From positions 37,544 through 101,543 of IMG/VR virus record IMGVR_UViG_3300048904_000041: 64,000 bases of DNA; one strand, given 5' to 3'. Both the position numbers and the translations under genes were made by a program. The notes under the pieces were generated by a model. It did no database searches and had not been told where the DNA came from. It saw nothing but the letters and a program-made list of their open reading frames with translations. Positions 1-55,952 of this stretch are shown piece by piece; the stretch's first letter is position 1, and each line of letters starts with the position of its first letter. Source of the stretch: a virus. Lineage: Duplodnaviria; Heunggongvirae; Uroviricota; Caudoviricetes.

Positions 1-223
1 GTGTCAAGTCAGTTGGTGGCTGAGGTTGCTCACAACTAACAGTCAACGGACGACCAGTATAAGCGCAACGGGTGCGAGTGTAAATAGAGCGCATCTGTGC
101 AAAAGTTAGCGTAAACTCAATACCACGGGTTGCTGCATTGTCAACCTTGTGCTTATACTTGCGAGCCATCATCAGGTCAAACTTGACAGGGGTCATACCG
201 TGGATCAAAGACTGAGAGGACAT
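1..223 (-). CDS. hypothetical protein, 5'-partial in window (MSSQSLIHGMTPVKFDLMMARKYKHKVDNAATRGIEFTLTF...)
   Basis: Minus-strand ORF with ATG at ~221-223 preceded by AGGAAA RBS; runs off window start; not in ORF track because no stop in window. Confidence 0.45.
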   Translation of the reverse strand, partial: MSSQSLIHGMTPVKFDLMMARKYKHKVDNAATRGIEFTLTFAQMRSIYTRTRCAYTGRPLTVSCEQPQPPTDLT

Positions 224-317
224 TACTGCATTTCCTAAGCTATTCGTTAATGTGTAGGTATCATCCCATAAGGGGCTAAACTAGGTCAACCCCTTACAGC
301 GATAAATCTACATCCCA

Positions 318-1136
318 TTACACACGTTTAACTTTGTGTTGCTTAATCAAAGCTACGTCATGCGAAACAATCTCAACTTGCAGTTGATTGACCTGAGCTT
401 GCAGGGCTGCTATTTGCGCCTCAAGCTTATCTTTCTTGCTTTGAATCTTACCAACCTTCGACAGAATTGCCTTGACAGACATATTCCCGATGTTGTGTGC
501 ATGCATTACACGAAGTTTGCGTAAGTCGATAGAACGACGATCTACATCCTCCGAACCGTGTGGGACAAAGTATGGGTCTGAACTATCGTCGTCAGTGTGC
601 AAAACCCACAAAGTGTTATCTTCACGACGCTGACAGATTGTTTCACCCTTGACAATACCAACACGTTGAGCCGGTGTCATGTCGCTGGTCAGTTCATCCG
701 ACCAGTCGTTGAGACAGTGCTGAATCAATTCTTTCAACTGAGTCAGGCGGTTGGCACCGTATTCACCTTCCCATTTGTTAGTATTGCCGTTCCACGCTTC
801 CTCGGCCTTGATGGTTGCTTGGTCTGTATCCGTCATAAAGTCTGGGTGACGTACAGGAAAGTGATACGCACCAGAATACGATGGTAGACGACGAATCAGG
901 TTGTCTTTAACACGGGAGAACATGTTAATTTCAGAAGAACGCCAGTTACCACGACCGATGTTGTCACAGATACCGTAGTTCGGGTAGAAGTAATCCGAAT
1001 CGACATATTCACCTGCACGGTGCTTGATCGCATAACCTTCACACTCAAGCAAAGCCTTGATAGTGTGTTTGTGCTTATCGCTTTTGTATTCGTAGTCAGC
1101 AGGAACGACGGTGTTTTCGGTAAGAATCATAGACAT
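318..1136 (-). CDS. hypothetical protein with C-terminal coiled coil
   Basis: 272-aa ORF; C-terminal heptad-like LEAQIAALQAQVNQLQ; driven by promoter at 1195-1223. Confidence 0.6.
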   Translation of the reverse strand: MSMILTENTVVPADYEYKSDKHKHTIKALLECEGYAIKHRAGEYVDSDYFYPNYGICDNIGRGNWRSSEINMFSRVKDNLIRRLPSYSGAYHFPVRHPDFMTDTDQATIKAEEAWNGNTNKWEGEYGANRLTQLKELIQHCLNDWSDELTSDMTPAQRVGIVKGETICQRREDNTLWVLHTDDDSSDPYFVPHGSEDVDRRSIDLRKLRVMHAHNIGNMSVKAILSKVGKIQSKKDKLEAQIAALQAQVNQLQVEIVSHDVALIKQHKVKRV

Positions 1137-1194
1137 TGTTCTGAAGCCTTATCCTAATGGTTAGGAGAGATTTATTCCCTCCTTTGTGTGGTTG

Positions 1195-1223
1195 ATTTTA
1201 CAGCGTTGGTACAGCGTGTCAAC
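1195..1223 (-). promoter_or_regulatory. sigma70-type promoter (TTGACA-16-TAAAAT) with AT-rich UP element
   Basis: minus strand reads AAAAATAAATGTTGACAcgctgtaccaacgctgTAAAAT; member of repeated GTCAACATTTATTTT motif family. Confidence 0.6.
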
Positions 1224-1509
1224 ATTTATTTTTAAACTTTCGTACTTCTTCGTGGAATCTATTAGGAACCTTGTGTACTTCGACACCCCATGCGTTACAG
1301 AAATATTCAGGTAGTTCACCGTTTGCTTGAATGTAAGCCCATGAACGACCATTGTCATCATCACGAACGAGTACAATACTCATTTCAGGGCAATCACCCT
1401 TGAATAGGTATGATGCTTTATAACTTGTTTGAAACCAGTGTTCGACAACTTCAACTTCACCGTCAACAACTTCGGTTTCTTCTACATCCCACTCATAATA
1501 AACAGCCAT
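1219..1509 (-). CDS. hypothetical protein (start trimmed to internal ATG MAVYYEWD...)
   Basis: ORF 1219..1599, but first ATG lies inside the promoter -35; internal ATG follows the -10. Confidence 0.45.
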   Translation of the reverse strand: MAVYYEWDVEETEVVDGEVEVVEHWFQTSYKASYLFKGDCPEMSIVLVRDDDNGRSWAYIQANGELPEYFCNAWGVEVHKVPNRFHEEVRKFKNKC

Positions 1510-1558
1510 TTCAATTACTCGATTTTGATTGAGGCTTTTCCTCTCTCTCTTTCCGCCC

Positions 1559-1586
1559 ATCATACCCGATTGATTTACCGCGTCAA
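1559..1586 (-). promoter_or_regulatory. sigma70-type promoter (TTGACG-16-TATGAT)
   Basis: minus strand TTGACGcggtaaatcaatcgggTATGAT preceded by AT-rich tract. Confidence 0.5.
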
Positions 1587-1952
1587 CATCTATTTTCAAA
1601 TTCTTTTAGAGAAGTACGCATATAGATGACCGCGTGCGTGCGCGAATACCACAAAAGAAAATGAAATGCAAGACTTGTGCTTTGCTTTGTTTGCTGTATA
1701 GTGAGGGTATGAGGTGGCGGGGTAGTAAACCCGGAGACAAACAGGGAGCGTGGACGCTATTTAGGTTTGGCACAGGAATTGCTTGTAAATAAAGATGTTG
1801 CAATCCTGAGATTATAGGTGTAGGCTTTAAAAACGTCGTCGAGCAATCGAGGGCGGAAGTGTGCTTAACACAAATTCGGCTTTAGAGAAGTCGGTGTGTT
1901 AATGAGAATGATACGCTCTATCGAATGCGAATGAGTTTCATTCAACCGGGTA

Positions 1953-2003
1953 AATGAGAATGACTCTCAATCCGGGTTCCAAATGGGTATCATTCTCATT
2001 TGG
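1953..2003. repeat. inverted repeat AAATGAGAATGA...TCATTCTCATTT within long non-coding region
   Basis: seen directly; additional AATGAGAATGA / AATGAGTTTCATT copies at 1898-1940. Confidence 0.6.
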
Positions 2004-2019
2004 GTGTGGAATTTTTCGG

Positions 2020-2140
2020 GGTAGGGTGCCCTAGCTACATCTACGCAGTAGGGCGGCTTAGCTACATCTACGGTCATCAAAACCCAATGAAATTTTTTTG
2101 GGAGTAGGGCGGGCTTAGCCACACCGGTGTCATCAAAATT
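2020..2140. repeat. three imperfect direct repeats (GGGTAGGGTGCCCTAGCTACATCTACG / AGTAGGGCGGCTTAGCTACATCTACGG / AGTAGGGCGGGCTTAGCCACACCGG) each followed by TCATCAAAA
   Basis: seen directly; iteron-like arrangement ~55-bp periodicity; no ORF. Confidence 0.6.
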
Positions 2141-2195
2141 TCTTCACTCATTATTCCTCATCAAATTTCAAAAGTCAATTCTATTTTCGATAGAC

Positions 2196-2228
2196 AAAAG
2201 AAAACCCGCCGAAGCGGGTCTCTATCTT
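2196..2228 (-). terminator. rho-independent terminator hairpin ACCCGC-CGAA-GCGGGT + T-run (minus strand)
   Basis: AAAAGAAAACCCGCCGAAGCGGGTCTC; reverse complement gives GCGGGTTTTCTTTTG. Confidence 0.65.
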
Positions 2229-4276: not shown

Positions 4277-4714
4277 TTAATCAGTCAGTTTAACCAGTGT
4301 GCAGATACCGTCTACTTTATCAGCGTATGCTTGTTTAATCAAGCTAGCTTTCTCTTCAGCAGATGGTTGACGGTCACGAATAATTGTGACAATGAACAAT
4401 ATCAGTACGGCTGATGTAATTCCCCAACCGGCAGCGCCGAAAGCATATGCAAACGCAGCCCAAGTACCTTTCTCAAACACCACACCCATAATCAATTGGA
4501 TCGGTGCTGCAATCATACTCACAACAGTACCAACAATGAACGCGATAAATACAAGCATAATTGCACTAAACCAAAGAGCAGCAATCAACGACCATGTAAC
4601 TGCACGGATGTACGTGCATGTGGTGTGACAGCCAAGATCAAACTTGTTCTTCGCAGTGCGTGTTCCGAAACGATCAACTGCTTTGTAGTGCCAAGAGTTT
4701 TTAGAAATGTTCAT
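4277..4714 (-). CDS. integral membrane protein (3-4 predicted TM helices)
   Basis: long hydrophobic stretches LIAALWFSAIMLVFIAFIVGTVVSMIAAPIQLIMGVVF / AGWGITSAVLILFIVTII; ATGA-coupled to upstream ORF. Confidence 0.55.
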   Translation of the reverse strand: MNISKNSWHYKAVDRFGTRTAKNKFDLGCHTTCTYIRAVTWSLIAALWFSAIMLVFIAFIVGTVVSMIAAPIQLIMGVVFEKGTWAAFAYAFGAAGWGITSAVLILFIVTIIRDRQPSAEEKASLIKQAYADKVDGICTLVKLTD

Positions 4715-5031
4715 ACTACACCATATTCCTTTTTCAGAGTATCGAGTTGAAGTTGACGATTGTCAATCGAAATTTGAAGCAGTTCGAGTTTATTACGCAT
4801 GTCTTCAAGATCTTTATCGATTATTACAATCTCATGAATAACATCCATAGTCATCTTCTTCGGTTCGATATACAGCTGGAAGCATTTATCATCATAAGTA
4901 CCTTCATGACCTTCAAGGGAAATACCTGTAGGTACTTGATGAGTAACCGTATAAATACCACCTTTATACGTATTCATGTAATTACCACTAATACGAATTA
5001 CTTTGCTACCGGGTTCAAAAATCTGAGTCAT
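4711..5031 (-). CDS. hypothetical protein
   Basis: 106-aa ORF, start overlaps NTase stop (ATGA). Confidence 0.5.
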   Translation of the reverse strand: MTQIFEPGSKVIRISGNYMNTYKGGIYTVTHQVPTGISLEGHEGTYDDKCFQLYIEPKKMTMDVIHEIVIIDKDLEDMRNKLELLQISIDNRQLQLDTLKKEYGVV

Positions 5032-5975
5032 TTAATTTCCCCTTCAAATGGTTTCAGTAGGTGAGCGTTTTTGATGAATCGCTCTGTGTAATCATTCTCG
5101 CCCATCTGCTTGTACAGGTCAAGCACTTTATCGTAATTTTCCCATGCATATTCACGGAACCAGCCACTGGTGATACTTGTGCACACCTTCTCCAGCGCCT
5201 TCATAAAGCTCTCACGTGGTGTTGGGCCACATTCCTTACCCAAGGTGAAAGGAATCTGAGAACGCTCCAGAGCAAGCACACAGGTCTCTTCGTACACACC
5301 ATACAAGCGGATGTGTTCGTGAACACCCATAAACTTCTCTTTAGAAGTCATAACTTCAGAACCATCCTTCATATAGAAGGTGTAAGCAGGTCTGGTAGTA
5401 TGATAGTACCCTCCGTCAACCTCATACGACTCGGTTTTCAACGCTACAGTAAGGTGAATACTGTCGTGGTCGTACACATACGGAACCCCATCACCGTCAA
5501 AGAACTCCTGTTTGCTGACATCCAGCTTAGGGTGCTTGTATGTGTAGGTTTCACGCTCACGCTGTTTGAACCACTCACTCTCAATAATCAACTGAGCATC
5601 TGGCGAAACATGCTCGCGAAGTAGCTTAATATCACGCATAGTCTTCGCAAAGTGTGTACTGTTCCGTAGGTAGCGGTGACTCATCTTCAAGGCGTAGAGC
5701 CAGTCTACAGAGGCTACACCTTCACCACCGTAAACGTCAAGCAATGCACGTGCTGCTGTACCTTCCCAAGCGATTTCGAATTCATTGTTCCATCCGTCTT
5801 TGGTGACCACGTGGAACTTGGTGTCCGACAGTGGTGTACAATGCTTAATAACAGCCTTGTTCTCACGTGTCCATTTCTGGAACTGTTCAAAGGTGCAGAT
5901 GCGGTCAGTGTCAGCCGGTGTACGATCAATGAGTAGACCGTGGTACTCAAGTGCAGCAGATCCAATTACAAGCAT
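5028..5975 (-). CDS. Pol-beta-superfamily nucleotidyltransferase-fold protein
   Basis: N-terminal hG[GS]x(9-13)DhD signature: VIGSAALEYHGLLIDRTPADTDRI; 315 aa. Confidence 0.5.
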   Translation of the reverse strand: MLVIGSAALEYHGLLIDRTPADTDRICTFEQFQKWTRENKAVIKHCTPLSDTKFHVVTKDGWNNEFEIAWEGTAARALLDVYGGEGVASVDWLYALKMSHRYLRNSTHFAKTMRDIKLLREHVSPDAQLIIESEWFKQRERETYTYKHPKLDVSKQEFFDGDGVPYVYDHDSIHLTVALKTESYEVDGGYYHTTRPAYTFYMKDGSEVMTSKEKFMGVHEHIRLYGVYEETCVLALERSQIPFTLGKECGPTPRESFMKALEKVCTSITSGWFREYAWENYDKVLDLYKQMGENDYTERFIKNAHLLKPFEGEIK

Positions 5976-5984
5976 TTCAGTGTC

Positions 5985-6122
5985 CTATGGTAGCAATGGT
6001 TTACTGTGACGTTGTGTCATCAGTTTCGAATACAGAGATGGTAAATCAGGTGTGACACGTTTGTCAATCCATCCCCGTAGAATATACTTACGCTTGAGCA
6101 TCTGAATGTTGTCCATGTACAT
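5985..6122 (-). CDS. small hypothetical protein (MYMDNIQMLKRKYILRGWIDKRV...)
   Basis: AAGGAC RBS before ATG; the longer track ORF 5985..6299 has S/T-rich low-complexity N-part likely spurious. Confidence 0.3.
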   Translation of the reverse strand: MYMDNIQMLKRKYILRGWIDKRVTPDLPSLYSKLMTQRHSKPLLP

Positions 6123-6132
6123 ATGTGTGTCC

Positions 6133-6531
6133 TTAGCAAGAGTGGTCGGAGTGCATCCATTTGACTGCTGATTCCAATGGGTCAGTTGATTCCAAGATCG
6201 GGTCAACACTCCAAGTGTCCCATGGGCACCAGTCGAGCATGTTGTCGATGTCATTGTTCTTTGCGAACTCACGGATTGAATCAGCATCAATGGAGACACG
6301 CTCTTTGAATGCTTCGATCATTTCAGCTAGTTTACCGAGAGCTTCACGCTTTGACAACACTTCGTTTACTTGCTTAGCTTCACGCTTCTGTGCTGCTAGC
6401 AATTCACGTGGTCGGTTTTCTTCCCAAGTGCTTCCGGGAACCCATGGTTGGGAAGGTGTATCAAGAATGGTCTGACGGGCAACACGGTTCACTGGAAGAT
6501 CAAGGTTGTCAAGAATTTCATTAACGTTCAT
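6133..6531 (-). CDS. hypothetical acidic protein (start at MNVNEILDN...)
   Basis: AGGAGATGTACA-ATG RBS; earlier in-frame ATG lies within promoter -35. Confidence 0.5.
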   Translation of the reverse strand: MNVNEILDNLDLPVNRVARQTILDTPSQPWVPGSTWEENRPRELLAAQKREAKQVNEVLSKREALGKLAEMIEAFKERVSIDADSIREFAKNNDIDNMLDWCPWDTWSVDPILESTDPLESAVKWMHSDHSC

Positions 6532-9354: not shown

Positions 9355-9500
9355 TTGTTAAGCTCCAAGTTGTTCAATAATAGAAAATACCATGATACTA
9401 GTCAATATGATTTCTGCCAACCCAATCATCATTGATCCGACATATACATCTTGGTCGATCTTACCAGTGTAACGCAGAAAGGTACTGCTCAGCAAGGTAA

Positions 9501-9698
9501 TCATTTCTCTTCTCCCGGTTGAATCCCATCACGTTCGTATTGACGTAGATTTCTCAGGAATCCCTCGGCATTGTATTTGAGGTGGCTTGAGTAGAGGTAC
9601 TTACCTACACTCCCATCGATATCTTTCATGTCCTCAACGTACCAGCAGGGCTTCCCTTTGCGACCTCGATTGGTCATCTGATAGCGACTCTTGTTCAC
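9501..9698 (-). CDS. hypothetical protein
   Basis: 65-aa ORF with GGAG RBS, downstream of promoter at 9731-9757. Confidence 0.45.
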   Translation of the reverse strand: MNKSRYQMTNRGRKGKPCWYVEDMKDIDGSVGKYLYSSHLKYNAEGFLRNLRQYERDGIQPGEEK

Positions 9699-37470: not shown

Positions 37471-37675
37471 GATTGTTTTGTCAGCGTTGCTTGGTGTGTT
37501 GATGGGTATCGGTTTGATCGTTGTAACATTTGACACAGTTGAACCTGTAATCAGATCGACATCTAAATCTGTGGCTCAAGTTTTTGCAAAACCAGTTAAG
37601 AAACTTATTGACATGGAACCTAAACGTCAGTATCCTGTTGGTACTTTTGAACATGAGCATAAGAAGACGATATGA
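37460..37675 (+). CDS. small membrane protein
   Basis: MNFKIVLSALLGVLMGIGLIVV TM helix. Confidence 0.45.
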   Translation: MNFKIVLSALLGVLMGIGLIVVTFDTVEPVIRSTSKSVAQVFAKPVKKLIDMEPKRQYPVGTFEHEHKKTI

Positions 37676-46034: not shown

Positions 46035-49000
46035 AAGCTTAAATCAATCCCCAATACGCCGTTAGGATGGAAGAATCGCAAATAGGAGTTGGTGAGGTTC
46101 ATTCTACCGTTCCCATTGACGCCGTTCATTTCGAAGTAACCATCTTTGCCAATATACCAACCAGAATAGCCCGAGACAAAGTTGTTAGACTGAATCACGT
46201 TACCGATCATTGCGTTGGTAATCCAACCAGTACCAATTAGTGCCTGACTAATAAACACTTGACCACCTTGTACAACAAATGGTGCAGTTTTTGTGGTTGT
46301 ACTACCATCAACAACAGCAAATCTGTCTGCTCTTACAAGGAATTGACTTTGTAGACCAGCAGGGCCGTTCTCAATACCCAATCCAATACCAGCGGCGACA
46401 TATTGACCGTTCTGTTGAGCTTCAATCTTCAGAGTATATGCAGCACTTACCTTGCCGTTGATACCAGCAATTGTTGTAGCCTGCTGCTGAATGGTTGCAC
46501 TATTCTGACCAGACTGAGCCGATACTGTATCGATACGTTGACTTAAAGCACCATCAGCGTTAGCCCGTGCTTCACTCTCGGACTGGATAAGTCCTTTAAC
46601 AGTTACCAACTCTTCGTCGATAACTTGGTTGAATTGAGCCTCAAGAGTTGTTACACTGCGAGCCAATGATTCGTCAGCCGTCGCACGTGCAGTCGCCTCT
46701 TCTCTGATGGCTGCTGTAATGTCATCATTGATCTTTGCATCGAGTGCATTGAGACGTGTTGTCACAGCTTCATCGTTGTTCGCTACAGTTGTTGTAAGCT
46801 CTGTCAACTTGGCATTGGTATCACCTAGCTTGGACTCTTGAACAAACAATCTTTGAGTGAAAGCTTCATCAGCGGTTGCACGAACCGTACGTTCTTCAAT
46901 AATCTGAGCACGGGAGTTCCAACCAGCGATTGCGTCATTCTGATCCCCAACACCATCGTCATCTCTGAATCCAGCAACAAGGCTGTCAAGCGATGAGGCT
47001 GTAGCTTCTAAACGACCGTCGATTATTTCAATGTTGGTTGTGTTAAGCTCAACTTGACCAGCGAGTGCATTAGCCTCTTCCAAAATAGTACCGATGTCTT
47101 TCCAGTACAAATCATTAGGAGGTGCTGTATCAAGTGGTACAGGAGCAATTGCTTGATACAATCGGTTACCCTGACGAACAGTCTCACCTACTGCATATTC
47201 TCTAGTTGGATCATATACGAAAGAATCATAAACATTATCTATCTGTTCCTGCAAATCTGAAACTGCATTTTCCAGCCTTTCGTTAACACTACCGGGGCCG
47301 TTTCCATCAATCAAGTCTATACGATCATATAGCTGTTTGTCAAGAGCTGTTTCAGAAATAAGACCAGCAAAGTAATCATTGTACTGACCATTGTCGTTAA
47401 TTGCAGAGCTACCCTGTACACCGGTCATAGACTCATTAGGGAACCATGGGCCGATATTACCGGTACGGTCTACCAAACGACACCAGAACCAGAATCGCTT
47501 ACCAGCACTCAAACCATGAAGTTCATGGGATGTCTGAGGGTATGCGAAATCACCAAGCTTGATGGCTTGCTCAAAGTTCTGATTCTCACTGTACATAATC
47601 TCTGTACGAAGTGTATCTTCAGCACCTTCTGGTAAGTACCAGTCGAGACGAATACCAAAAAGCAGAGGACTAGCAATCAGATCTGTTACAGCAGGTGGGT
47701 TTCCTTGCTTACCAACAAGAGTTGTCAGCATACTTGAACGCCATACAGACTTGATGCCTAATGCATTGATTGCTCTAACTCGTACAATGTAGTCACCAGC
47801 GTAGATACCCTTAACGTCAATCTCATTCGCACCAATGATACCAAGATTAACCCAATCAGCATTACCTCTACGCCATTGAACTTCGTAGCTAACAGCATTT
47901 GGAACTTGATCCCAACTTGCTGTCATTGTTGTAATTGCCATGGTCTGTTCAACGAATGTGGAACTAGTGACATTTACAGCATTAGGTGCTGCTTGTGCTT
48001 TTGGTGGTGTAACACTAACAGGTCTCGGTTCAAGTCGTGCACCATTGTCAATCGCAGGGTATTTACTTTCGTTATACTCGATACCTTGGATTTCAAAGAT
48101 ACCTGTACTAGGTTCAGAAACCTTAATTACACGATACAGTTGACTCTTCAACAAAGCAGATTCAAGATACCAAACAGCATTTGGTAAAGGTTGCTCAGTG
48201 AAAGGAACACTAACAGTGATAATGTTACCAGTTGCCTGAGTTACTGTACGCCCCTCTGTGATACCGTTAGACCTTGTGACATACAGAATATCACCCGGAG
48301 CAGCATCGACGCTTCTGTCGAGTGTCAGAACCCTTCCTGTCGATATTACGAGTCTACCTGTAAAAGGTTTACCACCAATCAACGGGTCAGTAACATGGAT
48401 GATCTTACCGGGGAAAACATCATCGTTCATACCCTGAAGACCAGTGCTGAATGTAACCTTTCGGTCATACAGGTTTGTAATCAGTGTATATTTACCACGA
48501 CGCTGAGCTTCACCACGGTTTGTACAACCAATTGCACTAATCTCAACCTGACGGTCAGAACCAAAGCGAAGAATTTCACTTGTTTCAAATGTCGCTTCAA
48601 CCTTTGTGTTATAATGATCTTCTGGATCATCAAAACTAATCAGGGCAGATGTGTAGATACTCTTATCGTCAGCAGAGTCATATTCAAACTTACCATTGAT
48701 TACGTTCGATCTGCTGAATATTGGAATGTTTGTGATAGGCTCTTGTTTGTCAGCTACTGCTTTAAACTGAGTACCATTCCAGTAAGTCATACCGTTGAAG
48801 ATACTTGCAAAGTCTCGCAACACCTTCCACGCATCGGCTTTCTCTTGAACATAGATATTACAGGTATGACGTGGTTGCATTTTACCAGTGCCAGTACCAT
48901 CATCAACCATCACGTCACAGTATTGAGCAATCTCGTACAGTGCAAACTTGTCAACCATGTTAGGTGTTACTTTGTTACCTAGACCGAATCTATCTTGAGT

Positions 49001-49870
49001 TAGGATGTCAAAGTAAACCCAAGCAGGGTTATCAGTCCAAGCAAACTTAAAATCACCAGCCCAAATACCCGAATATGTTCTTGTCTCAGGGTCGTAGTTC
49101 GATGGAACTCTTACGATTCGACCTTTCGTCTTTACAGAGATTCTTGGGATTGCACTACCACCAAACAACCTGCTGTCGAACTGAACAAACAACAAAGCAG
49201 TATTTGGGTATCTCTGTTTGAAGTCTGCAACTTCAGAATAACTTTTAATGTTCATTGTGTCTTGAATTGCAGCAGCGGTGCTATCTTGTGTATCCTTGAT
49301 TACCCGGATAGTCCAACCAGTTGAACTTTTAGGAAGGTTTACACGGTGTGTACGCTCATAACCAGAGTTTGTTTTACCAGAAACCTGATAGGTTGAATAG
49401 TCAACAAAAGGGCCACCAGCAGTTGACAGTTGGATTCGATAGTTGATCGTATAACCAACGGTATCACCATTCTGTTTCTGTTCGTACAGTGCAGGCCATT
49501 GAACTGTGACACGTACAGCGTCAAGCTCAGACTTTGTTACAGCCCTAGTCCAAGGTGTGTTACTTTTTAGTTCGACGTTTACGTTATATTCGGTGGCAAT
49601 CTCAGGAAGACCTTGAATGTAAGTCTGGTCTACAGTACCAGATCGCCAGTCCCAAGTAACACCACCGAAGTTCTTACTACCATCAGCGTTAGCCAGTGGT
49701 GTGCCGTCTAAGAAGATATCTTGATCGGTAGGAACACCAGCAAGCTCACCTTCAGCAACAGCGACCAATACCTTAGCATAAGCTACAGACAAAAGGTTGT
49801 TTGGCGTTTCTACAGGGGTATGTGGTTTTTCTGAACCACCTTTACCACCTTCAATTTCATACTCGATCAT
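46031..49870 (-). CDS. tail tip/central fibre protein (lambda gpJ-like) with fibronectin-III-like repeats
   Basis: KQRYPNTALLFVQFDS, SGIWAGDFKFAWTDNPAWVYFDILT match gpJ conserved blocks; 1279 aa. Confidence 0.85.
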   Translation of the reverse strand: MIEYEIEGGKGGSEKPHTPVETPNNLLSVAYAKVLVAVAEGELAGVPTDQDIFLDGTPLANADGSKNFGGVTWDWRSGTVDQTYIQGLPEIATEYNVNVELKSNTPWTRAVTKSELDAVRVTVQWPALYEQKQNGDTVGYTINYRIQLSTAGGPFVDYSTYQVSGKTNSGYERTHRVNLPKSSTGWTIRVIKDTQDSTAAAIQDTMNIKSYSEVADFKQRYPNTALLFVQFDSRLFGGSAIPRISVKTKGRIVRVPSNYDPETRTYSGIWAGDFKFAWTDNPAWVYFDILTQDRFGLGNKVTPNMVDKFALYEIAQYCDVMVDDGTGTGKMQPRHTCNIYVQEKADAWKVLRDFASIFNGMTYWNGTQFKAVADKQEPITNIPIFSRSNVINGKFEYDSADDKSIYTSALISFDDPEDHYNTKVEATFETSEILRFGSDRQVEISAIGCTNRGEAQRRGKYTLITNLYDRKVTFSTGLQGMNDDVFPGKIIHVTDPLIGGKPFTGRLVISTGRVLTLDRSVDAAPGDILYVTRSNGITEGRTVTQATGNIITVSVPFTEQPLPNAVWYLESALLKSQLYRVIKVSEPSTGIFEIQGIEYNESKYPAIDNGARLEPRPVSVTPPKAQAAPNAVNVTSSTFVEQTMAITTMTASWDQVPNAVSYEVQWRRGNADWVNLGIIGANEIDVKGIYAGDYIVRVRAINALGIKSVWRSSMLTTLVGKQGNPPAVTDLIASPLLFGIRLDWYLPEGAEDTLRTEIMYSENQNFEQAIKLGDFAYPQTSHELHGLSAGKRFWFWCRLVDRTGNIGPWFPNESMTGVQGSSAINDNGQYNDYFAGLISETALDKQLYDRIDLIDGNGPGSVNERLENAVSDLQEQIDNVYDSFVYDPTREYAVGETVRQGNRLYQAIAPVPLDTAPPNDLYWKDIGTILEEANALAGQVELNTTNIEIIDGRLEATASSLDSLVAGFRDDDGVGDQNDAIAGWNSRAQIIEERTVRATADEAFTQRLFVQESKLGDTNAKLTELTTTVANNDEAVTTRLNALDAKINDDITAAIREEATARATADESLARSVTTLEAQFNQVIDEELVTVKGLIQSESEARANADGALSQRIDTVSAQSGQNSATIQQQATTIAGINGKVSAAYTLKIEAQQNGQYVAAGIGLGIENGPAGLQSQFLVRADRFAVVDGSTTTKTAPFVVQGGQVFISQALIGTGWITNAMIGNVIQSNNFVSGYSGWYIGKDGYFEMNGVNGNGRMNLTNSYLRFFHPNGVLGIDLSL

Positions 49871-49889
49871 TTATATCTCCATATTTATA

Positions 49890-50474
49890 TCATTGTTGAT
49901 CTTCTGCTGTGATACTTGCCGATACTACAGCACCACCAACTTCACGCTCACCATAGAAAACAGGAACAGGTACACCTTGTGCTGCGGTATTCACAGGGCC
50001 ACCAAATGCATAAGATGCTTTGTTCTCAACATCTGTAGTTGTTGATAATCCCGGTGGGGCAGGTGTGAGAAGTTGTACAATACCACCAACAGCCAAACTC
50101 ACAGCAATAGATGTTGCGGGAGCAGCAAATGCAGCACCTACACCACCTGTATAAACTGTTGCAAGAATAATTACAGCAGCCGCTAGGAACCCAAGACCTG
50201 AGTTCTTAGCACCACCATATTTAGGAACCAGTCTTACTACTTTTGGTTTACCCATTTTTAGATGCTCTATATCTGTAATTTGACGCTTATCTGTTCTTAC
50301 ACTGAATAGAGCACCACGTTTGGCAGCAGCCCTGAATGCTTTATCAAACTCAGGAACTTGCATCATCATTGCTTTAATTGCTTCAGCCGGTGAACTCACG
50401 AAGAATTTGTGGTTACCATATTTCTTAAGATAACCACCCGGTTGAACCTCGATCCATGTATCAGACATTTTCAA
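49890..50474 (-). CDS. tail assembly protein (lambda gpI-like)
   Basis: position between K-like and J-like; Gly/Ala-rich hydrophobic C-terminus. Confidence 0.6.
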   Translation of the reverse strand: MKMSDTWIEVQPGGYLKKYGNHKFFVSSPAEAIKAMMMQVPEFDKAFRAAAKRGALFSVRTDKRQITDIEHLKMGKPKVVRLVPKYGGAKNSGLGFLAAAVIILATVYTGGVGAAFAAPATSIAVSLAVGGIVQLLTPAPPGLSTTTDVENKASYAFGGPVNTAAQGVPVPVFYGEREVGGAVVSASITAEDQQ

Positions 50475-51279
50475 TCTCCTTATGTCTAAGAATCATTCTA
50501 GTTCTTTGTTGCCACTGACCACCGTAAACGATTACATCACTTTCCTTATCGTACATGTGATGAAGCATCAGCGTTTTACCAAACAAACTTCTACCTTCAA
50601 ATTCAGAAACATCACCAAGGTAAATACCAGCATGGTTAGGATGATAGCTCCTACCAATTTGCATGATAATCATGTCACCCTTCTCAGGTGTGTCAACCTG
50701 ATAGAATCCAGCTTCTTTGTAGAAGTCTTCATATAGTGATTTTGCTTCTTTATTTTCCCACCACTTGTCTTCTCTTGTGTATTTAGGGAATGACAGACCG
50801 TGGTATTTGTTGTAGTATGCTTCACATGTTGACCAGCAATCCCAATAACCATGAACGAATGGTCTTCCAAGTAAGGTGATTTCATCTTGCGGTACAACCT
50901 GCCTGTAATCGCCTTCAGGCCACGATACGATGTGCCAAGGGATAGCCTTAGACTCAGGGTCTACAACCAACTCAACCTCACGGTGCTTCTGCATAACAGC
51001 TATGTCATAAGCGCTAGGTCGAGTGGTTGCGTCTGGATGACTATGAACAATACCTATAACAGTTCCAATATCCTCGGCATCAGCAAATGAGTCAGGGCAC
51101 ATCTTGAACTCTTCAGTCGGATCATTGCTAATGTTCAAACACCTCACATACTTCTCTGTTTTACCATTCAATACGACAACACCACAAATCTCTTTAGGGT
51201 AGCCGTCTTCAGCATGTTTCATGATGTCTTTGATTGTCTTTGCTTTCAGTTTCTTAGGGATCATATCAACCTCTCGCAA
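50461..51279 (-). CDS. tail tip assembly protein (lambda gpK-like; JAMM/MPN + NlpC/P60)
   Basis: HSHP...S..D JAMM motif (GIVHSHPDATTRPSAYD). Confidence 0.7.
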   Translation of the reverse strand: MREVDMIPKKLKAKTIKDIMKHAEDGYPKEICGVVVLNGKTEKYVRCLNISNDPTEEFKMCPDSFADAEDIGTVIGIVHSHPDATTRPSAYDIAVMQKHREVELVVDPESKAIPWHIVSWPEGDYRQVVPQDEITLLGRPFVHGYWDCWSTCEAYYNKYHGLSFPKYTREDKWWENKEAKSLYEDFYKEAGFYQVDTPEKGDMIIMQIGRSYHPNHAGIYLGDVSEFEGRSLFGKTLMLHHMYDKESDVIVYGGQWQQRTRMILRHKEIENV

Positions 51280-55400: not shown

Positions 55401-55952
55401 AGCTACAGCACCGGAGCTTACGAGACCTTGTTCAGCCTCACTTGCACCTTTAATTGCACTTGTCAGGTTCTGTTGTGCTAGTGCTTGTTCAACACTTGCG
55501 TTTGCGATAGCCTTAAGGCGCTCAGGAACACCTTCAGTGGATTGTGCCAGTTGACGCTGGGCGCTACTAACACCGATAATCTTATCAAGAGATTCTTGAA
55601 GTTTTGCATTGTATGAATCAAATGCAGCAGTTGACAAACTATCCTTATTGGCGAACAGCAAAGCTTCTTGTTTTGCAAGATCATTCAGTTTCTTGGTTAC
55701 TGGATCGATTTTAGCAAGAAGCTTTTCAAATTCACGGGACTGGTTTGCTGCTGCTTTTGCGGAATCATCCGCACCTGATGCAACGGTCTTTGTTGCGTTT
55801 GCAAGTGCGGTATCCGCTTTTTGTTTGTTAGAAGCTGCTGTACTTGCTTTGTTTGCAGCATCAGCAAAAGAACCTAACTCACGTGTTGCTTCCGAAAGAG
55901 GTCTGGAGTCAACATTGATTTGTAACTCAGCTATCGTTGGCATCTTTTTCAT
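52446..55952 (-). CDS. tail tape measure protein
   Basis: 1168 aa, Ala/Gln-rich helical, after G/GT chaperone genes. Confidence 0.85.
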   Translation of the reverse strand: MKKMPTIAELQINVDSRPLSEATRELGSFADAANKASTAASNKQKADTALANATKTVASGADDSAKAAANQSREFEKLLAKIDPVTKKLNDLAKQEALLFANKDSLSTAAFDSYNAKLQESLDKIIGVSSAQRQLAQSTEGVPERLKAIANASVEQALAQQNLTSAIKGASEAEQGLVSSGAVAASNARAKAALEEFNARREATKATQEAVSANAAQARSVDDLTAAINPAIRRIRELEALQRELNQAQKDGRIDPTQYQTLNRVLETNIAQQKRYSEGLQNTGKSAKELAFATRGLPAQFTDIVVSLQGGQAPLTVLLQQGGQIKDQFGGVGAALKAMATYIAGLITPVTVLGTVLAGVAFGAYQGGQELSEFNKALVSTNGAAGVSASQFSQFRDTLDNTVGTAAKAAQALTALEASGQVAGDQFLKIAESAILFEKATGQAIEKTVEDFAAIGKDPVNAAVRLDEKYRFLTATVLSQADALVRQGNEQEAVRLLQDQLADSAATAATAMLESAGTIERAWRGVRDVVKEAVDAVLSIGRTDTSADRINELLRQRKNLQDSIDTNASLGLRGLGQDGNKTRVAEIDREIAAIKERINYENLGAENAAKTERARRESVSATASAERRRVSGLKDVAKAEEELRQVRLENAKILAAPEGVSDANRKLALENEARAVKNLAEEREKAAKKANKPEALNTTSVQEVRSDLKVIEAEYDGYYKRVTALGDANLVSAEATYASQRAILQAQADAVSQSYDAQINAIKNLRDNKKNTNAQNIALDNQLTKAQADRVVAEEKVQAKLDSLEAKEKGRIDRRTANISAYAAALEAQRQNLEDDGARRAEGVGRGSRQAALNNALGDNDRSFAKQQRDLAAALGASQIDPTEYAEKLKLLGDAHTEMKDQILKNDAQIQAANEDWTNGFTAAVEEARDVGVNFAGSVNSALTGAFRSAGDALAEFVTTGKLNFRSFTVSILADFARIASQQAASGALSGILGIAGSAASSYFGGGANGFSSGSAAATSSSLGASQAGYSSQYFKNGGGFEGGVQRFAKGGDFTNSIVSTPTRFRFGDQLGEMGEAGPEAILPLQRAADGSLGVRAVGGSGDSLSGGTQRTGGVQVNVYVTNDGTTSTTTGGNGAYDSFGSEIGAFVDQRVYKIINKESRSGGSLAR

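Follow-up and report, generated by a model that had tools for sequence, protein, structure and literature searches.

Several described systems come close, each in part, to the locus considered here. GlmY/GlmZ and the Pseudomonas CrcZ are sigma54-dependent small-RNA genes with paired sigma70/sigma54 promoters, and transcription-activated origins of replication are known from T7 (phi1.1A/B with an AT-rich region), T4 (oriF and oriG) and lambda (iterons with an AT-rich region). In phage T5, the injection-stop region includes the untranslated, repeat-dense Repeat Region 3, ~10-12 kb from the genome end (Heusterspreute 1987; Wang 2005; Davison, bioRxiv 10.1101/866236). The nearest counterpart is found in Pseudomonas phage PAK_P4 (GenBank KC862300), whose record, annotated from RNA sequencing (RNA-seq), includes a 200-nt non-coding RNA (ncRNA), as16, at 55650-55850 on the minus strand; it is listed as a putative antisense RNA only, and its structure, conservation and function are not described there (Blasdel et al. 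2017, PMC5563952). Fifteen of the 17 PAK_P4 antisense RNAs lie inside structural genes (PMC5563952), and by the record coordinates the two that do not are as16 and as17, the latter over the terminal-repeat region. Here we describe a gap free of coding sequences (CDS) in a 64,000-nt stretch (the window; positions 37,544 to 101,543) of the Caudoviricetes record IMGVR_UViG_3300048904_000041, using window coordinates throughout. With moderate confidence, we interpret this gap as a conserved non-coding unit of transcription and control and not as a packaging site; it was classed as a control unit because conservation, covariation and one annotated transcript in a relative support an ncRNA. To judge from the motifs that it carries, the unit is probably gated by the host proteins Fur and sigma54.

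The gap extends from 1513 to 2231 (719 bp) between minus-strand genes at 1219-1512 and 2232-2471, i.e. it is flanked by two leftward early operons, and the gene-free stretch reported by the first-pass annotation is thus real. It contains five small open reading frames (ORFs), the longest of 65 aa. When these were compared by tblastn with the homologous regions of relatives, only short, frame-inconsistent matches were obtained (E >= 2.5e-4), compared to E = 3.5e-12 for a neighbouring 79-aa gene used as a yardstick, and the ORFs were ruled out as protein-coding because a conserved frame was not found for any of the five. Scans for tRNA and tmRNA and with Rfam 15 at gathering score returned zero matches in the window and in six homologous loci, so the covariance search that had been proposed earlier yielded no matching family; the best sub-threshold Rfam hits in the window cover a terminator hairpin alone. 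Replication annotations were not found for the genes next to the gap. The 79-aa gene to its right has its sole homologue in Pseudomonas phage vB_PpS_SYP (SYP), where it adjoins a 669-bp gap. SYP is also close by its DNA polymerase, to which that of the window phage shows 74% identity, compared to 58% for phage phiPMW.

The left half of the gap (1559-1860) is homologous to the non-coding gaps of SYP, phiPMW, JG004 and PAK_P4 (both Pakpunavirus), PAK_P3 (Nankokuvirus) and ~15 uncultured phages, some of which are referred to below by L numbers; on these alignments, it is this phage's copy of a conserved non-coding module of virulent Pseudomonas phages. Aligning the window gap to the SYP gap gave an identical 18-nt block. 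Scans with the 16-mer GGAGACAAACAGGGAG and with a two-part pattern recovered this arrangement in contigs of ~84-112 kb from IMG/VR and metagenomes, and a BLAST search with the SYP gap found the core in 145 Pseudomonas phage records, nearly all unannotated at the locus. The order of the elements is fixed in the homologues: the promoter of the next operon, an alternating GC tract, promoter P1, a hairpin with a GGA loop (in most lineages), C(C/T)GGAGACAAACA(G/C)GGAG, a TGGCAC-N5-TTGC box, promoter P2 (missing from the PAK_P3 module) and a second structured stretch. The entire unit points opposite to the flanking genes.

At the left edge of the module, a sigma70-type promoter on the minus strand (TTGACG-16-TATGAT, 1559-1586, 10/12 matches) is predicted to drive the next leftward early operon. 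Its GTCAACA block is kept in all homologues, and its PAK_P3 counterpart is P035, whose start site (51049) was mapped by ONT-cappable-seq. The 14-bp alternating tract noted earlier is also real, lying 4 nt to the right of its reported position of 1627-1640: the alternating purine/pyrimidine GC tract CGCGTGCGTGCGCG occupies 1631-1644, and its homologues are 9-16 nt long, always alternating and at the same position, with varying sequence. In SYP, phiPMW, PAK_P3 and L013 the tract directly follows a TGGCAC-N5-TTGC box on the opposite strand, which in the window is degenerate. Immediately left of the module, the end of contig L015 (1-210) is a tandem array of the 28-bp unit GGCCTTGCCAGGTAGGCTGAACTCCCCT.

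The position of the module in the genome could be assessed in several relatives. For SYP, whose record contains a direct terminal repeat of 341 bp, the distance from this end to the module is 11.7 kb. The termini of phage K8 were mapped experimentally and carry a 1188-bp terminal repeat (PMC4773840); this repeat maps to ~67.4-68.6 kb of PAK_P4, ~12 kb from the PAK_P4 module, and the predicted PAK_P3 terminus (gp113) is also ~12 kb from its module. With termini, mapped or predicted, ~12 kb off in K8/PAK_P4, SYP and PAK_P3, the module is therefore internal, and it divides the early region from a ~12-kb terminal block. A 13.7-kb contig of the window phage from the Logan assembly is identical to window 1-2220, starts in the terminator at the right module edge and runs 11.5 kb further through small genes.

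The first promoter, P1 (TTGTGC-16-TATAGT, 1675-1702, plus strand), is a predicted sigma70-type promoter identified in an alignment of 18 sequences. The A, A and T of its -10 element do not vary in any of the 18, and the hexamers of relatives are near consensus; the window copy is weaker than theirs and falls under the threshold of the promoter scan. It is followed by the RNA1 core segment (1707-1765, plus strand), which contains the 16-mer GGAGACAAACAGGGAG at 1733-1748. Of the 18 aligned sequences, 14 share the 16-mer without change and all contain an invariant GGAGACAAACA, while PAK_P4, which is outside the alignment, reads GGAGATAAACA. A covariance model of this segment (R1) detected one copy per genome, with 49.9 bits in the window, 35 in PAK_P3 and 63 in PAK_P4. 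As the window was itself among the 18 training rows, its match holds by construction, and those of PAK_P3 and PAK_P4 are independent. The 5' hairpin of RNA1, with its GGA loop, covaries in relatives: 90.7% of cells were paired compared to 15-38% in slid controls, 26 cells showed double changes, and none of 500 shuffles reached the observed value. A consistent closing stem or terminator of RNA1 was looked for across lineages and not found. In bacterial genomes, a scan with the 16-mer gave mostly chance matches and the R1 model only weak ones; the best of these is a partial match (21.9 bits, E = 3e-5) at 1157-1191 of L062, a 3-kb contig of an uncultured Gammaproteobacteria metagenome-assembled genome, which is possibly a mis-binned phage fragment.

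Downstream of the RNA1 core, the plus-strand sequence TGGCACAGGAATTGC (1768-1782) fits both TGGCAC-N5-TTGC and GG-N10-GC, i.e. a sigma54-type -24/-12 box, and is the single match in the 64-kb window. Ten of the 14 homologues that were examined carry such a box, at +34/+35 relative to the 16-mer, and relatives hold extra boxes, as face-to-face pairs and as one abutting the GC tract on the other strand. A search for an activator site upstream of the box turned up nothing recognisable; the alternating GC tract, at a distance of ~135 bp, is no more than a candidate. Boxes of this type also occur in the 1188-bp terminal repeat of K8 (KT736033), where four TGGCA(C/T)-N5-TTGC sites, two per strand, were counted (chance ~0.01); the region homologous to this repeat in PAK_P4 is covered by as17.

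The second promoter, P2 (TTGCAA-17-TAGGCT, 1798-1826, plus strand), is again a predicted sigma70-type promoter at a conserved position, and a TTGACA-type promoter occupies this position in 13 of 15 P2-bearing lineages. The PAK_P4 homologue of P2, TTGACA-17-TAGAAT, is base for base the 'putative promoter_03' of its GenBank record (55784-55811, minus strand), beside which as16 is annotated. In the window, the predicted RNA2 covers 1833-2016 on the plus strand, with a first hairpin at 1835-1854 and a 3' end near GGAATTTTT at 2008-2016; this end was placed there because GGAATTTTT likewise precedes the repeats in PAK_P4. The first hairpin, to which the test was confined (6 sequences, ungapped segments), covaries, with 95% of cells paired compared to 24-55% in slid controls and three pairs changed on both sides, and the whole 186-nt stretch folds with z = -4.5. 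For RNA2 as a whole, RNAalifold run on MAFFT-aligned sequences returned no consensus structure, as their lengths are too different. Overall, the suggestion of an untranslated RNA locus made in the first-pass annotation gains support from the antisense-oriented promoters, which are conserved between phage genera, the covarying hairpins and PAK_P4 as16.

The right half of the gap is lineage-specific. It opens with four Fur-box-like 19-mers of the 9-1-9 type, with partial dyad symmetry, at 1901, 1924, 1953 and 1982 (within 1901-2000; spacing 23/29/29 bp), which agree with the consensus AATGAGAATCATTCTCATT in 15-17 of 19 positions and lie in the DNA of the predicted RNA2. At a cut-off of >=15/19, the four loci within 1901-2000 are the only sites for this consensus in the 64-kb window, compared to 0.5 per window in shuffled sequence. 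The consensus is a published Xanthomonas Fur box, and AAATGAGAATGA lies within a predicted Fur site of Acinetobacter baumannii (PMC1790865, PMC3055841); compared to the Escherichia coli consensus GATAATGATAATCATTATC, the 19-mers reach only 13-14/19. The perfect inverted repeat reported earlier belongs to this array, its 12-nt arms AAATGAGAATGA and TCATTCTCATTT lying at 1952-1963 and 1990-2001, and a longer perfect inverted pair of 14 nt was found at 1901-1914 and 1987-2000.

The geometry of this array is repeated in L006, SYP, Erwinia phage KEY, Pantoea phage AAS21 and T5 Repeat Region 3. In a BLAST search of the window gap against 50,697 phage records, only the T5-like phages KEY and AAS21 were hit, in an untranslated repeat region of 1.6 kb that holds the same boxes at 29-bp spacing and also DnaA boxes. 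In T5 (AY587007), five AAATGAGAATCATT boxes at 9473-9612 in Repeat Region 3 match Fur-box consensus sequences at >=15/19; they are the 'direct repeat C' copies and palindromes E-I, and they sit at the first-step shear point (9618) and a little to its left, and also to the left of the 7.9% nick. A preprint analysing this T5 region (Davison, bioRxiv 10.1101/866236) does not mention Fur, and in a limited search of the searchable literature the fit of 'direct repeat C' to a Fur box was not found. The terminal 1.4 kb of SYP (OQ183418) is non-coding and contains five or more Fur-like boxes as well as a single sigma54-type box, i.e. the SYP genome end and its internal module have motif types in common. 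The array is entirely missing from Pakpunavirus-type relatives; PAK_P4 has one Fur-like site and PAK_P3 none. PAK_P4 is reported to induce the host Fur (iron) regulon strongly and PAK_P3 not to do so (PMC5563952), but titration of Fur by phage boxes is unsupported as the cause, because of these site counts.

Beyond the array lie three direct repeats private to this lineage (GTAGGG-N-CTTAGCTACATCTACG, 2021-2128), each with internal dyad symmetry. The first-pass annotation had described three such repeats, each followed by GTCATCAAAA. The repeats do exist: two copies are complete (25 nt; 2021-2045 and 2048-2072; 88% identity), and the third, at ~2103-2128, is only partial, having a 1-nt indel and a 3' end that has diverged. 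GTCATCAAAA, however, follows copies 2 and 3 only (2073-2082 and 2129-2138). Further copies were found neither elsewhere in the window nor in 185 compared loci, and an IMG/VR scan with a 14-mer from the repeat gave just single chance matches. Relatives carry different repeat families at this position, those of the Pakpunavirus type having TTAGC-N-GCTAA palindromes and three or four 19-20-bp A-tract repeats AAAAnCTGTCCAGTCCC. Absence of the repeats from related phages, which had been named in advance as telling against a functional locus, thus holds for 2021-2128, whereas the remaining architecture is conserved.

An AT-rich tract with TCATCAAA repeats follows (2130-2197, 73.5% AT compared to 56% for the window). 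Within it, just inside the terminator and directed toward the repeats, lies a promoter-like site on the minus strand (TTGACT-17-AATAAT, 2178-2150, 10/12), from which transcription, if the site is active, would converge with that from P1 and P2. The right module edge is formed by a predicted bidirectional intrinsic terminator, GACCCGC-TTCG-GCGGGT (2201-2222), whose sequence is also present in phiPMW and SYP and exactly within which the Logan contig breaks. Its core, AAAACCCGCCGAAGCGGGT, recurs within and between phages (window 2201-2222; L003 4948-4969 and 10491-10518; L018 3120-3140).

Taken as a control unit, the locus would work as follows. P1 and P2, both read by host sigma70-type polymerase and with the sigma54-type box between them, would fire rightward, against the two leftward early operons, and transcription would traverse ~400 bp of protein-binding repeats before ending at the bidirectional terminator (2201-2222). 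A short RNA segment under selection follows each promoter, RNA1 with its purine-rich GGAGACAAACAGGGAG and RNA2 with its covarying hairpin. The phage may make one or two small ncRNAs early in infection. Their synthesis or extension would be gated by host DNA-binding factors, namely Fur in the window lineage and sigma54 holoenzyme both here and in Pakpunavirus-type lineages. The outcome could be an early-operon switch, and possibly a start of replication, coupled to host physiology.

Several observations weigh against this control-unit reading. The expression evidence comes from the relatives PAK_P4 and PAK_P3, and the P1 and P2 hexamers of the window phage match only ~7-8/12. The PAK_P4 transcript annotation includes RNA2 and not RNA1, and in PAK_P3 ONT-cappable-seq recorded zero minus-strand starts at 48439-51049, leaving RNA1 undetected there. 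The window and L004 have a variant RNA1 5' part that lacks the covarying hairpin of most relatives, single-sequence folds of RNA1 are of ordinary stability (z -1.4 to +0.4), and the covariation in RNA2 was drawn from 6 sequences only. Finally, Fur and sigma54 were assigned by resemblance, and the boxes could serve phage proteins.

An alternative explanation, which we consider unlikely although it fares best among the competitors, is an origin of replication activated or primed by transcription, as at the T7 primary origin, T4 oriF/oriG and lambda ori. P1 and P2 transcripts would enter repeats occupied by an initiator of the phage and open the AT-rich tract, and the purine-rich RNA1 motif could stabilise an R-loop. 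The layout, with tandem promoters upstream of repeats and a 73.5% AT tract, is compatible with this reading and with the iteron-type origin proposed in the first-pass annotation; the AAAAnCTGTCCAGTCCC repeats of relatives, three or four at the same position, look classic, and lineage-specific repeats are expected if they co-evolve with an initiator. In L023 the module directly precedes a gene for a ParA-type ATPase, resembling a plasmid-like ori/par layout. However, the repeats of the window are few (2 full and 1 partial) and irregularly spaced (27 and 56 bp), an adjacent initiator gene and an IHF site were not found, and the single DnaA-box match, TTAGCCACA, reaches 8/9 and lies inside repeat 3. 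No inflection of sense-strand GC skew was seen at the module in any of the four phages compared (the window phage, SYP, PAK_P4 and PAK_P3). Apart from that one DnaA-box match, the usual marks of an iteron origin (DnaA and IHF sites, a neighbouring initiator gene, an inflection in strand composition) were not seen beside the repeats and AT tract. As for L023 itself, a 46.8-kb uncultured contig, positions 4700-6360 hold the RNA1 module, repeats, the gene for the 255-aa ParA-type ATPase and a 98-aa ORF; this partition-like cassette hints at a plasmid-like lifestyle of that relative.

RNA1 could instead act as a small sponge for RsmA/RsmE (CsrA family), a repressor of translation in the host, which would bind a GGA in the hairpin loop and the single-stranded ACAGGGAGG; we regard this as improbable. 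The conserved ACAGGGAGG fits the (A/U)CANGGANG(U/A) consensus, a GGA is in the loop of every relative that has the covarying hairpin even though the stems differ, and ACGGAGU is expanded to three copies in L013. In total, 63 GGA were counted in 18 RNA1 sequences compared to 41.8 +/- 5.0 in shuffled ones, a statistic that is inflated because the sequences are related. Each RNA, however, has only 3-5 GGA, the window copy lacks the hairpin, and neither a terminator defining RNA1 nor an abundant transcript in PAK_P3 or PAK_P4 was seen. Rfam Rsm/Csr matches in RNA1 were not found either, and a weak RsmY hit (15.2 bits) covers the terminator (2200-2223) only.

A third proposal, drawn by analogy with the T5 injection stop, is that the region serves as a DNA-entry checkpoint or nucleoprotein boundary, at which arrays of sites of abundant host proteins would pause entry or insulate the terminal early block. 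The array points in this direction: the sole phage BLAST hits fall in the untranslated repeat region of KEY and AAS21, the 29-bp phasing of the boxes is common to KEY and the window, and the T5 boxes are located at the first-step shear point. So does the position, since the module lies ~12 kb from the termini in SYP, PAK_P4/K8 and PAK_P3 (predicted), the 13.7-kb contig extends from the module outward, and the SYP end is itself packed with Fur-like boxes. On the other side, homologues of the T5 pre-early genes A1, A2 and dmp were not found, nor were paired DnaA boxes (IRD'/IRC') or DRD-type repeats, and the module lies outside the terminal repeat, which measures 341 bp in SYP and 1188 bp in K8 compared to 10 kb in T5. 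Compared to the T5 injection stop, with its location in a long terminal repeat, its paired DnaA boxes and its A1/A2 genes, only the box array is held in common. Moreover, Pakpunavirus-type relatives lack the Fur-like array, and two-step injection has not been reported for these phages. We consider this checkpoint very unlikely. A more general form is a long shot as well: unrelated virulent phages with direct terminal repeats may place phased arrays of sites of abundant host DNA-binding proteins at their genome ends and again ~10-12 kb inside, as an entry checkpoint or first-block boundary, the arrays being Fur-like in T5, KEY, SYP and the window phage and sigma54-type in Pakpunavirus. If this were true, part of the T5 injection stop would depend on Fur, and genome delivery in two steps would extend beyond T5-like phages.

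A packaging (pac/cos) site or physical genome terminus, the remaining suggestion of the first-pass annotation, can be given almost no credence and was rejected on the evidence of the termini in K8 and SYP. In its favour, the region is non-coding and rich in repeats, and the ends of several metagenomic contigs fall within ~1 kb of the module. Such breaks are explained by repeated sequences, as with the Logan contig, which is broken in the recurrent terminator; the mapped K8 repeat showed no similarity to the module, and the SYP terminal repeat stands 11.7 kb away.

The control unit, as we favour it, would matter beyond this one phage. At least 145 sequenced Pseudomonas phages carry the module, among them members of the therapy-candidate genera Pakpunavirus and Nankokuvirus, and it contains a candidate new phage RNA motif absent from Rfam. 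It provides a fixed landmark ~12 kb from the genome end that splits the early region. With Fur-type and sigma54-type arrays in virulent phages, the iron or sigma54 status of the host may be sensed by their early programme. The fit of the T5 'direct repeat C' palindromes to a Fur box also makes the old injection-stop question experimentally approachable.

Compared to the described systems, the locus combines features that are otherwise found apart. Similar to GlmY/GlmZ and CrcZ, it has a TGGCAC-N5-TTGC box beside a sigma70 promoter upstream of a predicted small ncRNA; it differs in that no activator site was found and in that the boxes of relatives also stand face to face or in a terminal repeat, which is unusual for promoters. 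As in the T7, T4 and lambda origins, repeats and an AT-rich tract lie downstream of tandem promoters at an early-block boundary, whereas a nearby initiator gene and a skew signal were not found. The Fur boxes of Xanthomonas (AATGAgAATcATTctCATT) and A. baumannii (e.g. ATAAATGAGAATGATTTTAATTAAT) are likewise 19-bp units with partial dyad symmetry that occur in arrays, but the window sites lie on a virulent phage and downstream of promoters instead of over them. T5 Repeat Region 3 is, like the gap, untranslated, repeat-dense and ~10-12 kb from a genome end; T5 and the window phage are both virulent, of the kind with direct terminal repeats, and have an array of palindromic AAATGAGAAT(C/G)A boxes in common. 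T5 has DnaA-box pairs, DRD repeats and the A1/A2 genes and is without the P1-RNA1-sigma54-P2 unit; the window lacks these T5 elements and its module stands outside the terminal repeat. The closest match is PAK_P4 as16 with promoter_03 (KC862300; Blasdel et al. 2017, PMC5563952), which lies in a homologous non-coding gap between early genes, is antisense to the flanking genes and, as in the window, has the RNA1 core just upstream. PAK_P4 differs in its extra sigma54-type boxes and in carrying TTAGC-N-GCTAA palindromes and CTGTCCAG repeats where the window phage has the Fur-like array and its private repeats.

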